NCBI GenBank assembly: GCA_000004985.1
Contig: GG739334.1
Direction: 5' to 3' (one strand)
DNA from: Naegleria gruberi
Taxonomy: Eukaryota
DNA length: 1,739 nt
The number at the start of each line of letters is the position of its first letter. The stretch's first letter is position 1. The notes below the pieces were generated by a model that searched no databases, was not told the origin of the DNA, and was given only the letters and a program-made list of their open reading frames with translations. A program made the translations under genes and the position numbers. Positions 1 through 1,739 of this stretch are shown piece by piece.

Positions 1-959
1 GCTCCGTGAGCTAATAATTCTTCATCAATAATGATATTAATGTCAGTACAGAACGAGACTGGAGGTTTTCCTGACAAGAAAAATTCAATTATTTCTTCCA
101 AAGTTTTATCATATGAATGGAGAGCATATGATAAAACCTTTCCTTTTCTTGGCGTTTTAGCATCTTTCAACTTGTGCCAATTCTCATCGAGGACATTAGT
201 CTTCTTTATCATTTCCTTTGCCTTTGTGGATCTCAACAAGGAAGAAGTGTGTGCAGTGAGGATAGCCTCAGTAATCTTTTGTAAAAACAACAGATTTTGC
301 ACATCTGGAGGAGTGCTGGTATTTTGACTAATAATACCTTTCAGTAAGGTAATGGAAACTTTTGGTTCCATATTTGGAGCATTGAAAGAATCCATTTTAG
401 TCTTGAAATAGTTTGTCATCTTGGTTGTACAGTTATGGATTTCCATGAAAAAGTAATCAATTTTTTTTGTAACAAGTTTTTCCATCAAATCGATAACTGG
501 TTTCTCTGGTGCGTTTAAGAAGTTATCATCCGAATTAGCAAGGGAATGCATAAATGAACCATGACCAGGAGCATCAGCAATATGGATTAACACTCTGGTA
601 AAGCTATTCCAGTCTAAATCGACAACTTTTTGCAATCCTCCGGCTACATCTTCAGCAATATCATATCCATACATAAGTGGACAATCTGCAATCGCTTTCT
701 CGATAACTTCCACTTGGTCAGTGAATGGATGAATAACAAATGGTACCTTATCATCAATATCAGCATAACCTACAAAGGCGTAACGAATAGTTTTCACCTC
801 TTGATTTTTGGAAGCAACTTCTTTTAAAACCTTTGAAATAACAGACTTGGCAGAATCCATCCATGTCTTCATAGAACTAGTAATATCTAACAAGAAGCAC
901 AAATCAATGTACTGAGGGTTGCGAGCTTGAATTTCTCGCATTTGCTTAACTGAAATCAT
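1..959 (-). CDS. 5' part of a vWA-domain protein. ATG at 959..957, and the frame stays open to position 1, so the 3' end lies outside the window. The vWA domain spans roughly 908..434 and carries a MIDAS-like D-x-T-x-S motif.
   Basis: Translating the reverse complement from 959 by hand gives an uninterrupted frame of 319 codons plus 2 nt. An in-frame TAA sits two codons upstream (968..966). The translation begins MISVKQMREIQARNPQYIDLCFLLDITSSMKTWMDSAKSVISKVLKEV...IRYAFVGYADIDD...GYDIAEDVAGGLQKV...RVLIHIADAPGHG. This follows the vWA beta1 / beta2 / (GGT-like loop) / beta4-TDG layout: DITSS at 887..873, GYD around 665..657, IADAP around 581..567. The track omits it because there is no stop codon inside the window. 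Codon use is biased and consistent (CCA, GCT, GGA/GGT, AGA). Confidence 0.8.
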   Translation of the reverse strand, partial: MISVKQMREIQARNPQYIDLCFLLDITSSMKTWMDSAKSVISKVLKEVASKNQEVKTIRYAFVGYADIDDKVPFVIHPFTDQVEVIEKAIADCPLMYGYDIAEDVAGGLQKVVDLDWNSFTRVLIHIADAPGHGSFMHSLANSDDNFLNAPEKPVIDLMEKLVTKKIDYFFMEIHNCTTKMTNYFKTKMDSFNAPNMEPKVSITLLKGIISQNTSTPPDVQNLLFLQKITEAILTAHTSSLLRSTKAKEMIKKTNVLDENWHKLKDAKTPRKGKVLSYALHSYDKTLEEIIEFFLSGKPPVSFCTDINIIIDEELLAHG

Positions 960-1024
960 GATGGATTATTTTTTTTAAAGTTGTCAAAGTACTTGATACG
1001 AATGCTGGGCATAAAGTTGGGCGA

Positions 1025-1047
1025 AACGTGATAGACAACGTGAATAG
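1025..1047. repeat. Tandem direct repeat AACGTGA-(A)TAG with 12-bp period: 1025..1034 and 1037..1047.
   Basis: gcgAAACGTGATAGacAACGTGAATAGtga. The heptamer AACGTGA is exact at 1025..1031 and 1037..1043, and each copy is followed by TAG. Each carries an ACGT core. Confidence 0.45.
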
Positions 1048-1059
1048 TGAAGTTTCAAG

Positions 1060-1128
1060 TTGTCAAGAATTAAGCGTTATGACCTGCATAGGAGTGATGT
1101 GATGATATGTTGGTGGAATTGTCAAGAA
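1060..1128. repeat. Exact 10-mer TTGTCAAGAA repeated at 1060..1069 and 1119..1128 (59 bp apart). A third variant copy TTGTCAAAG lies at 981..989.
   Basis: Read directly: caagTTGTCAAGAAttaag, ggaaTTGTCAAGAAgtcac and aaagTTGTCAAAGtactt. The reverse complement is TTCTTGACAA, which contains TTGAC(A). Three copies within about 150 bp of intergenic DNA suggest a repeated transcription-factor binding site. Confidence 0.5.
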
Positions 1129-1129
1129 G

Positions 1130-1163
1130 TCACGTTTTCAACCAAAAAATAGTCATCACGTTT
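1130..1163. repeat. Direct repeat TCACGTTT at 1130..1137 and 1156..1163, placed 53 and 27 bp upstream of the plus-gene ATG.
   Basis: agTCACGTTTtcaacc and caTCACGTTTgatta. Both contain an ACGT core. They lie in the proximal promoter of the plus-strand gene. Confidence 0.45.
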
Positions 1164-1182
1164 GATTACATCAGCAAGAAAA

Positions 1183-1739
1183 ATGACATCACGTACTCCT
1201 AGCAAAGTTCACTTGCTTGTCACATTGGAATGCTCATTCCTTCACAGTAACAAACTTGGAGAGACTGATAACACTATTTTGCACACGATTTTTGATTATC
1301 TTGCTAATTTCTGTGGCAAGTATTTAGTTAAAACTGAGAATTTGACTCTATGTTTGTTGAATAGTAAAGGAAACACGTGTACGAAACACGAATTTACAGG
1401 TAACAGAAAGTTTGAAGAACCTTTCAAACACTTAATACAGCAGTGTGATTTTGCAACCGAAACCAAGCCATTTTCGTTATTTGATATGTTCCAAACATGT
1501 CATACAATCTCATCAAAGGAAGTGGACACCCAAATGGTTGCAATTATGTTTTGTTCTTCTATCAGCTATGTACCATTGGATGGAGGTGAATTGATCTTTC
1601 TTCAAAATTTGAGAGAAAATTCTGTTAAAGTCAGTGTAATTGATTTTGATGTTGGTCAGAGTAAGGAACAGATCTACATTGATTGTATCAATTTGGGAAT
1701 AACCTATTATCAAACCCCAAATTTGAAATATCATCTTCT
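1183..1739 (+). CDS. 5' part of a protein with a degenerate vWA-like (Rossmann-like beta-alpha-beta) fold. It may belong to the TFIIH p34/Tfb4 family. The first ATG after an in-frame TAG (1150..1152) is at 1183, and the frame stays open to the window end.
   Basis: Codon-by-codon translation from 1183 gives 185 codons with no stop: MTSRTPSKVHLLVTLECSFLHSNKLGETDNTILHTIFDYLANFCGKYLVKTENLTLCLLNSKG...MVAIMFCSSISYVPLDGGELIFLQNLRENSVKVSVIDFDVGQSKEQIYIDCINLGITYYQTPN. The start context agaaaaATG is A-rich and Kozak-like, and there is no Shine-Dalgarno sequence. It has the same codon bias as the minus-strand gene (TTG/CTT Leu, CCA Pro, GGA/GGT Gly). Three stretches pattern-match my recollection of human p34: HLLVTLE (vs LLVIVVD), YLANFCGKYLVKTENLTLCLLNS (vs [20 protein letters not shown]) and IFLQNLRENSVKVSVIDFDVGQS...DCINLGITYYQTP (vs [20 protein letters not shown]...ACDITGGLYLKVP). 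This is a loose match from memory, not an alignment. Confidence 0.7.
   Translation, partial: MTSRTPSKVHLLVTLECSFLHSNKLGETDNTILHTIFDYLANFCGKYLVKTENLTLCLLNSKGNTCTKHEFTGNRKFEEPFKHLIQQCDFATETKPFSLFDMFQTCHTISSKEVDTQMVAIMFCSSISYVPLDGGELIFLQNLRENSVKVSVIDFDVGQSKEQIYIDCINLGITYYQTPNLKYHL

Follow-up and report, generated by a model that had tools for sequence, protein, structure and literature searches.

The window analysed here is an entire Naegleria gruberi contig of 1739 bp, which carries two divergent open reading frames (ORFs; Table 1). The minus-strand ORF has no stop codon up to the end of the window, being open at base 1, and was 100% identical over 207 aa to a record named "predicted protein, partial [Naegleria gruberi]". 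It begins with a vWA domain, followed by a predicted long helix and a low-confidence linker, and by its sequence it reads as the 5' part of a gene of the vWA + alpha-kinase type. The plus-strand ORF matched no Pfam family and had no homologue at E <= 1e-3; it is context, outside the vWA finding. The spacer between the two is presumably an upstream region common to both divergent genes.

Table 1. Features of the 1739-bp window, with residue numbers of the minus-strand ORF
Feature	Position	Strand	Basis
ORF, 319 codons	959..3	minus	ATG 959..957; in-frame TAA 9 nt upstream; translation
vWA domain, residues about 17-206	342..911	minus	beta1 to last strand of the sheet
D25-I-T27-S-S29-M30, MIDAS motif 1 (D-x-T-x-S-M), beta1-alpha1 loop	870..887	minus	alignments, AF2
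Y65-A66-D67, C-terminal end of beta2	759..767	minus	alignments to beta8 and beta3
G98-Y-D100-I-A102-E103-D104, loop ahead of helix 105-113	648..668	minus	hmmsearch, hhalign
W117, near-invariant Trp, common with integrin beta "IGW"	609..611	minus	199/202 in family
H126-I-A-D129-A-P-G-H133-G134, beta4 end and next loop	558..584	minus	strand E121-128, alignments
H138 ... D144-D145, conserved His/Asp, beta4-alpha4 loop	525..548	minus	conservation counts
Predicted long helix, residues 218-266	162..308	minus	DSSP of AF2 model, pLDDT 72-88
Low-confidence linker, residues 267-319	3..161	minus	pLDDT < 50 for 269-283 and 299-319
Spacer, 223 bp, vWA gene to divergent plus-strand ORF	960..1182		coordinates
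Second ORF, divergent, 185 codons, open to window end	1183..1739	plus	ORF listing

The N-terminal domain has a vWA fold (Rossmann-like alpha/beta, CL0128 type), with a six-stranded sheet and flanking helices, and its structure matches those of solved vWA domains significantly (AF2 core pLDDT 80-94). In the AF2 model the D25-S29 motif lies where strand E17-25 ends and helix H28-51 starts, D129 directly follows strand E121-128, and the putative ligands are all on one face of the sheet: beta1, beta2 and beta4 carry them at their C-terminal ends, and the loop leading into helix 105-113 carries the rest. The helix at residues 218-266, a segment conserved with the N. lovaniensis proteins P0056 and P0002, is predicted by the model to link the vWA with the kinase side.

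The original prediction had singled out three MIDAS-like motifs in this domain. Translation placed D25-I-T-S-S29 exactly at 887..873 (with M30 at 872..870) and HIADAPGHG, with D129 at 575..573, likewise where it had been put; G98-Y99-D100 was also present, but at 668..660 rather than at about 665..657, a shift of one codon. Its view of the site as an idiosyncratic deviation did not hold, the signature being near-invariant across a family of at least 2884 clusters. Specifically, clustering at 50% identity gave 2884 clusters at E <= 1e-3, a number that fell to 1196 when the limit was E <= 1e-10, with a range comprising eukaryotes and giant-virus-like contigs (Heterolobosea, Amoebozoa, stramenopiles, chytrids, green algae, nematodes and giant viruses). 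Scanning for related loci used degenerate DNA that encodes H-I-A-D-A-P-x-H-G-x-x-[YF]-H. The alignments indicate that the odd-looking motifs are the normal signature of a large, already catalogued vWA family, whose domains in protists usually precede an alpha-kinase, and, because they are family signatures, that they lie far beyond chance. The window holds an ordinary Naegleria paralogue, with a catalogued domain family and a known architecture.

The Pfam family concerned is VWA_4 (PF25106). The window match is borderline against a curated gathering cutoff of 27 bits: the 319-aa ORF scored 27.0 bits and residues 1-215 alone scored 28.0 bits. All of the 49 relatives tested (49/49) also matched, with a best E of 2.2e-14. 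Of the 169 profile positions only 2-89, the first half, are matched, a part that includes the D-x-T-x-S-M start and the G-G-x-D-x-x-E loop, whereas the half with HIADAPxHG departs from Pfam's model; this divergence suggests that the window family is a distinct branch inside or beside VWA_4. In UniRef the relatives bear the name "Hemicentin-1-like von Willebrand factor A domain". Full-text searches found no literature linking alpha-kinase, von Willebrand and MIDAS, and no relevant literature on hemicentin MIDAS or on a Naegleria vWA alpha-kinase.

We counted conservation over 202 related, aligned domains pooled from two database searches. In the first motif, D25 was found in 192 of 193 domains, S29 in 186 of 193 and M30 in all 199; Thr occupied the first-Ser position of the MIDAS motif (T27) in 192 of 193 family members. 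At the end of beta2 both Y65 and D67 were invariant (202/202). The loop ahead of helix 105-113 contained G98 (193/201), D100 (202/202), E103 (201/202) and D104 (199/202), with Ala (100/202) or Pro (75/202) at position 102 and a variable position at Tyr99 (Gly in 79, Asp in 57 and Ala in 25 of 201). Around the end of beta4 we counted H126 (188/202), D129 (201/202), P131 (200/202), H133 (201/201) and G134 (194/201). Further on, H138 stood in 179 of 201 domains, and of the D144/D145 pair one Asp was kept in 194 of 200, without exception in alignments A1 and A2. The window copy is atypical at two positions, namely A66 (Arg in 190/202) and Y97 (Gly in 188/201), and given R66A and G97Y it could be a drifting paralogue.

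Among solved structures, the best structural and sequence match was the integrin beta I domain, especially that of beta8 and beta3. The best 50 Foldseek matches were all integrin beta chains (best E = 5e-10). When the profile of the trimmed alignment A2 was searched against 177,635 PDB sequences, integrin beta chains made up 57 of the 60 matches listed and were the only significant ones, with beta8 the best (E = 6.6e-5); the profile of alignment A1, whose 369 positions were diluted by long flanks, found nothing in the PDB at E <= 1. Beta I domains stood above alpha I domains in all three structure and sequence searches. In hhalign the family was aligned with beta3 (residues 111-359) at a probability of 92.3% (E 5.4e-7, 173 columns) and with alphaM (128-321) at 72.7%, both reference sequences being 100% matches to PDB chains. 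Identity of the window domain to integrin beta is only 14-18%. Scores against the Pfam Integrin_beta model were weak: the window reached E 0.02-0.045, and of the 49 relatives 7 came in at E <= 0.1. Other high-scoring structural neighbours were the intracellular vWA domains Rpn10 and TFIIH p44/Ssl1. A polyubiquitin match at E of about 1e-6 in a single-sequence PDB search was an artefact, being the sum over nine repeats whose single stretches had E of about 500.

The beta3 alignments gave a residue-by-residue map. In beta3 the MIDAS is formed by S121, S123 and E220 (with D119 and D251), and the SyMBS by D158, N215, D217, P219 (a backbone ligand) and E220. The window residues D25, T27, S29, M30, D67 and G98 corresponded to beta3 D119, S121, S123, M124, D158 and N215, respectively, and D100, A102, E103, D129, A130 and H133 to D217, P219, E220, D251, A252 and H255. 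The anchoring segments were aligned with both beta8 and beta3: the family "AFVGYRD" with "GFGSYVD" and "GFGAFVD158", W117 with the Trp of "HIGW" and "KIGW", and "HIADAPxH" with "VMTDQTSH" and "FTTDAKTH". As originally predicted, all alignments to solved vWA domains placed D25, T27, S29 and D129 at MIDAS positions. The coincidence of D25/T27/S29/E103/D129 with the beta3 MIDAS and of D67/D100/E103 with its SyMBS argues that the classical loop Thr is most likely replaced by E103 rather than by D100, and that D100 is probably part of a second metal site. The earlier choice of D100 as the substitute for that Thr is not supported by these alignments, in which D100 falls on the SyMBS residue D217 and E103 on E220, and the earlier residue set was incomplete in leaving out D67 (= beta3 D158) and E103/D104.

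Measured against the classical alpha-I MIDAS, the window has D-I-T-S-S where D-x-S-x-S is expected and has no loop Thr, alphaM T209 being aligned by hhalign to the variable position 99; the Asp at the end of beta4 (alphaM D242, beta3 D251) is present as D129. One could still picture a single alpha-I-type site that binds one metal with altered coordination, in which T27 stands for the first Ser, D100 for the Thr of "GGT" and D129 for the beta4 Asp. The G98-x-D100 spacing does resemble G-x-T, position 99 adjoins D100, and D100 is invariant. We nevertheless consider such a site unlikely: the alphaM alignment is weaker than that to beta3, beta I outranked alpha I throughout, a 4-residue insertion of the family relative to the alpha-I domain (A102-V105) would have to fall exactly at the conserved E103-D104, and the equally invariant D67, E103 and D104 would be left unexplained.

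A Thr in place of the first Ser is not peculiar to this family. As the original prediction had noted for copine A-domains, the D-x-T-x-S variant is known, and in the crystal structure solved for the copine-like vWA domain of RGLG1 such a MIDAS coordinates Mg2+ (PMC7155146); by analogy, since this variant binds Mg2+ in RGLG1, Thr at position 27 should be functionally compatible with Mg2+ binding. The shared D-x-T-x-S of RGLG1 and copines is also what speaks for the window domain being a copine-type A domain, the other known DxTxS vWA. That assignment is extremely improbable, and we rejected copine membership: there was no Copine (PF07002) or C2 match in the window at E <= 10 and none among 49 relatives. 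Together with the position of the vWA, which is N-terminal and in the closest relative precedes an alpha-kinase, this bears out the earlier suggestion of a distinct vWA subfamily other than copines.

Our preferred reading, which we hold to be reasonably likely, is that of a VWA_4 vWA domain, N-terminal in a vWA + alpha-kinase protein, with an integrin-beta-like MIDAS and a SyMBS-like site and without an ADMIDAS. The central MIDAS would be built from D25, T27 and S29 in the beta1-alpha1 loop, E103 in the loop leading into helix 105-113 and D129, where beta4 ends, with T27 giving the hydroxyl that Ser gives elsewhere and E103 taking the place of the classical loop Thr. The adjacent SyMBS-like site would use D67, D100 and E103 along with two backbone carbonyls, those of residues 100 and 102, so that E103 would be a bridging Glu common to both sites. 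The third integrin site, the ADMIDAS, is missing. From topology and homology, we infer that these side chains converge on one or two points. By analogy with integrins, the MIDAS cation may have its coordination completed by a partner protein through an acidic side chain, and a second cation (Ca2+ in integrins) may stabilise or tune partner binding. The vWA domain could in this way recruit or regulate the downstream alpha-kinase via the long C-terminal helix.

Some vWA domains lack a working MIDAS. The domain might accordingly be a metal-independent protein-protein interaction module with a relic site, whose conserved acids serve folding or partner contacts; its intracellular structural neighbours Rpn10 and TFIIH p44/Ssl1 and the loss of the near-invariant R66 and G97 from the window copy would both sit well with this. 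Against it, seven oxygen-donor residues lie at beta3 MIDAS/SyMBS positions with 96-100% conservation in 202 domains, and such conservation, across distant eukaryotes and giant-virus-like contigs, is the pattern expected of a metal site in use, which makes a relic improbable.

A different centre altogether could be formed by H126, D129, H133, H138 and D144/D145, as a family-specific transition-metal (e.g., Zn2+) or catalytic site distinct from a MIDAS. The conservation counted above for the three His and for one Asp of the pair points that way, as does the absence of counterparts for these residues, apart from H133, among the beta3 metal ligands (H138 and D144-D145 have none in the beta3 metal sites). 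However, H133 is aligned with a His found in both beta3 ("TDAKTH") and beta8 ("TDQTSH") that is not among the ligands of the beta3 metal sites, no enzyme family was matched in Pfam by the window or 49 relatives, and the loop from H138 to D145 is of low model confidence (pLDDT only about 63-80). We regard such a centre as very unlikely.

The kinase part of the preferred reading comes from the relatives. The closest full-length one, N. lovaniensis P0056 (911 aa), is collinear with window residues 6-319 over its residues 84-399 (E = 6e-60), the window "...IIIDEELLAHG" being aligned with "...IAIDTEKYGEG399". In P0056 a vWA domain at 98-192 is followed by a Pfam Alpha_kinase domain (PF02816) at 397-584, whose start corresponds approximately to window residue 317, and 25 of the 65 longer relatives carry Alpha_kinase as well. 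The window ORF is cut off by the contig end at residue 319, which leaves the alpha-kinase domain itself outside the window; from the collinearity we infer that the gene continues into one beyond the contig end.

For this window little is changed, except that its motifs are to be interpreted by comparison with the integrin beta I domain and not as a damaged alpha-I MIDAS. A bolder claim, possible but in our view doubtful, is that the family carries a working, linked MIDAS + SyMBS cation pair, an arrangement so far characterised in integrin beta subunits alone. If true, the two-metal arrangement would predate integrins, and the pair would be a docking switch, tuned by Ca2+ and Mg2+, that acts on the attached alpha-kinase via the C-terminal helix. 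Confirmation would provide a small, soluble, intracellular model of the MIDAS-SyMBS cation pair, and a hypothesis for divalent-cation regulation of vWA + alpha-kinase proteins such as Dictyostelium VwkA.

Such proteins are known from Dictyostelium (VwkA) and from Tetrahymena, with eight paralogues (PMC2827801). In VwkA-type proteins the vWA is N-terminal and the alpha-kinase C-terminal, as in P0056, and the vWA domain of the window ORF is N-terminal in the same way. VwkA itself was absent among the 120 matches listed in the homologue search with profile A2 and among the named matches; its roles in myosin II levels and the contractile vacuole would need experiment before being transferred to Naegleria. 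Copines, by contrast, have two N-terminal C2 domains and then an A domain, a different order from the N-terminal vWA seen here. RGLG1 and the copine A domains have the first motif in common with the window, but RGLG1 keeps the classical loop Thr (T258), unlike the window, and its additional Ca2+ sites are remote from the MIDAS (PMC7155146).

The closest comparison is with integrin beta, from which the architecture as a whole clearly departs. The domain is without the long specificity-determining loop (the stretch between D67 and the following strand, E74-80, is only 6 residues long) and without the hybrid-domain insertion; M1 lies 24 residues before the first motif, behind an upstream in-frame stop, leaving no space for a PSI domain or signal peptide; and downstream the relatives have a helix and an alpha-kinase in place of PSI, EGF and transmembrane parts. 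With the loop, the hybrid insertion and the PSI, EGF and transmembrane parts all missing, an integrin beta subunit is ruled out: this is an intracellular, kinase-linked protein. The invariant extra acid D104 and the conserved H126 and H138 are likewise unexplained by the integrin template. The Asp pair of the integrin ADMIDAS (D126, D127) is absent, replaced by T32 and W33 in the window and by P/S/A/K and W/Y/F/H across the family, a condition shared with beta8 ("SMHNN"). At the SyMBS positions, N215 is replaced by the near-invariant G98, so that one side-chain ligand is missing, and P219 by Ala in the window (Pro being the residue in the 75 relatives noted above), whereas three of the four side-chain ligands are kept, as the invariant D67, D100 and E103. 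All five MIDAS positions are retained, the change of S121 to Thr being conservative. Family and integrin beta have a signature in common, made up of D-x-[ST]-x-S-M, [FY]-x-D where beta2 ends, D-x-[AP]-E ahead of the helix, the conserved Trp and, past beta4, D-x-x-x-H.

Integrin beta I domains were ranked first by three independent comparisons of the vWA domain. Specifically, when an AlphaFold2 model built from 45 sequences (pLDDT 80-94 in the vWA core and only 76 overall because the tail is disordered) was searched with Foldseek, every one of the top 50 matches was an integrin beta chain (best E = 5e-10), while a profile of 49 family members compared with 177,635 distinct PDB sequences gave integrin beta chains as 57 of the 60 matches listed, the best being beta8 (E = 6.6e-5). 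We also excised the matching domain from 199 proteins returned by our searches and used hhalign to compare the resulting 202-domain alignment with beta3 (residues 111-359) and alphaM (residues 128-321; both references agreed with PDB chains in numbering and at 100% identity), obtaining a probability of 92.3% for beta3 (E 5.4e-7, 173 columns) versus 72.7% for alphaM.

HMMER and hhalign alignments agreed on the map from window residues to beta3 (see table). In beta3 the MIDAS ion is liganded by S121, S123 and E220, with D119 and D251 close by; the SyMBS ion by D158, N215, D217 (through both its side chain and its carbonyl), the carbonyl of P219, and E220, which bridges the two ions; and the ADMIDAS ion by S123 (carbonyl), D126, D127 and either D251 or M335. 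Based on this map, all MIDAS positions are kept in the Naegleria domain and its family (with Thr in place of S121), as are all but one of the four side-chain ligands of the SyMBS. By contrast, the Asp pair of the ADMIDAS is absent, being replaced by T32/W33 in the window and by P/S and W/Y in the family; beta8, the best match, has 'SMHNN' at this place. Seven oxygen ligands, each near-invariant, line the top face of the fold, arranged as in integrin beta.

Features of the window, with beta3 counterparts and family conservation of vWA residues, and AAA-vWA gene pairs on giant-virus-like contigs
Feature	Position	Strand	beta3	Conservation
vWA ORF, 319 codons (translation)	ATG 959..957, open to window end	-		
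ORF of 185 codons, divergent from vWA ORF	ATG 1183 to 1739, open to window end	+		
Spacer, 223 bp	960-1182			
DITSS (D25-S29)	887..873	-		
D25			D119	192/193
T27			S121	192/193
S29			S123	186/193
M30			M124	199/199
Y65				202/202
A66 (family Arg)	762-764	-		Arg 190/202
D67			D158	202/202
Y97 (family Gly)	669-671	-		Gly 188/201
G98-Y-D100	668..660	-		
G98			N215	193/201
D100			D217	202/202
A102			P219	
E103			E220	201/202
D104				199/202
W117			Trp of 'IGW'	199/202
HIADAPGHG (H126-G134)	584..558	-		
H126				188/202
D129	575..573	-	D251	201/202
A130			A252	
P131				200/202
H133			H255	201/201
G134				194/201
H138				179/201
Codon 207, end of public model	339-341	-		
Ubiquitin-like candidate (rejected), residues 189-232	~264-395	-		
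L001 gene pair	4509-6672			
L002 gene pair (JAIYBN010000006.1)	6511-7903	-		
L003 gene pair	452-2663			

The original prediction had read DITSS, G-Y-D and HIADAPGHG as unusual substitutes for the canonical DxSxS, GGT and TDG motifs. Translation places DITSS, and D129 within HIADAPGHG, exactly as predicted; G98-Y-D100 is also present, but one codon away from the predicted 'about 665..657'. The assignment of D25/T27/S29 and D129 to the MIDAS holds in the alignments to beta3, and copine membership was rejected, as anticipated. However, the supposedly deviant residues turned out to be the consensus of the 202 domains. Nor does D100 appear to stand in for the loop Thr: in the comparison with alphaM, T209 falls opposite position 99 (Tyr in the window, variable in the family), and four residues (A102-V105), E103-D104 among them, are inserted in the family. 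Judging from the alignments, E103 is most likely the replacement for that Thr, and D100 is better read, together with the previously unremarked D67, as a ligand of a second site adjoining the MIDAS. By analogy, DxTxS is compatible with a working MIDAS, since this motif coordinates Mg2+ in copine-like RGLG1's crystal structure (PMC7155146).

The integrin template leaves unexplained the invariant D104, R66, H126, H138 and the D144/D145 pair. These residues might be taken to form an additional, family-specific metal or catalytic centre, which we consider unlikely; R66 is itself absent from the window copy. Given that this copy departs from the 'YRD' and 'GGxD' motifs at A66 and Y97, while the N. 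lovaniensis relatives retain both R66 and G97, the N. gruberi sequence may represent a drifting paralogue.

If the integrin-like arrangement is functional, a Mg2+ or Mn2+ ion at the MIDAS would bind an acidic residue, either in a partner or within the protein itself, and the SyMBS-like site would hold a second, stabilising cation, which in integrins is Ca2+. After the vWA domain comes a helix predicted to span 49 residues (218-266), and relatives then have an alpha-kinase; on the model of integrin I domains, in which the alpha7 helix moves, site occupancy could be relayed through the C-terminal helix so as to place the kinase or regulate it.

The window protein belongs to the vWA fold but lacks two of the three defining features of a classical alpha-I MIDAS. 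Pfam assigns its domain to VWA_4 (PF25106) with a borderline score (27.0-28.0 bits against a cutoff of 27), the match ending halfway through the profile, while 49 of 49 relatives match clearly (best E = 2e-14). The window, 1739 bases long, spans a small N. gruberi contig from end to end. A 319-codon open frame at the window's G+C of ~35% is no chance event, and an in-frame TAA lies 9 nt upstream of its ATG. The start of the frame is 100% identical to a 207-aa database entry ('predicted protein, partial [Naegleria gruberi]') ending ...LLK, past which the frame stays open for 112 codons, to base 3. Because in-frame homology to both N. lovaniensis proteins persists through the added codons, the 207-aa end looks like a gene-model artefact rather than an intron or a stop. 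A ubiquitin-like domain was rejected, as the phmmer polyubiquitin hit (E ~1e-6) was a summed-repeat artefact (single repeats E ~500). The spacer is presumably an upstream region common to the vWA gene and the 185-codon ORF, which matches no Pfam family, lacks homologues at E <= 1e-3 and is thus probably a Naegleria-specific orphan.

The closest full-length relative, N. lovaniensis C9374_010400 (911 aa), aligns to window residues 6-319 (38% identity, E = 6e-60). Since its Alpha_kinase domain begins at residue 397, equivalent to about window residue 317, the contig by this alignment ends where the kinase is expected to start; the window holds the vWA part of a putative VwkA-type alpha-kinase and stops about where the kinase part would begin. 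Among 65 longer relatives, Alpha_kinase was found in 25, and Pkinase, HSP70, FYVE or SecA_DEAD in a few. The locus tags of the two closest relatives, C9374_010400 and C9374_010404, differ by four, the longest contig measures 45,484 bp for each, and only one carries an alpha-kinase domain (the other protein has 438 aa), which suggests a local paralogue cluster with differing C-termini.

A word-indexed search returned 55 relatives, and when 1.84 billion cluster representatives were scanned exhaustively with HMMER, 2884 matched at E <= 1e-3 (1196 at E <= 1e-10). Named relatives come from N. lovaniensis, Arcella and Synstelium (Amoebozoa), Chlorochromonas (stramenopile), Gonapodya and Phlyctochytrium (fungi), green algae, Anaeramoeba and Panagrolaimus nematodes. 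Stand-alone forms (~220-260 aa, most ending ...SQDP) occur on giant-virus-like contigs: a strict DNA pattern for HIADAPxHGxx[YF]H matched 10 IMG/VR contigs of 48-220 kb and, among 185,579 prokaryotic species genomes, a single contig (L002, 'MAG: Proteobacteria bacterium', 188,548 bp). As its neighbourhood (AAA, vWA, RNA_pol_L-like, 1059-aa ORF) is that of IMG/VR contig L003, L002 is probably a giant-virus contig misbinned into a bacterial MAG. The stand-alone vWA genes lie directly downstream of, and overlap, a ~500-aa BCS1-like AAA ATPase gene, in what looks like a conserved gene pair of giant-virus-like genomes; contigs L001, L002 and L003 also code for topoisomerase II, an RNA-polymerase subunit and SNF2/DEAD helicases.

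The domain family, the DxTxS variant and the vWA plus alpha-kinase architecture (seen in Dictyostelium VwkA and in eight paralogues from Tetrahymena; reviewed in PMC2827801) were all catalogued before. We found no description of the integrin-beta-like reading of this metal site, with a MIDAS and a SyMBS but without an ADMIDAS, in the literature searched, beyond whose reach two key older papers lay, and regard it as a useful, testable refinement. Despite such a metal face on paper, the window protein is not an integrin beta subunit, since it lacks the specificity-determining loop, hybrid domain, PSI/EGF and membrane parts as well as the ADMIDAS.
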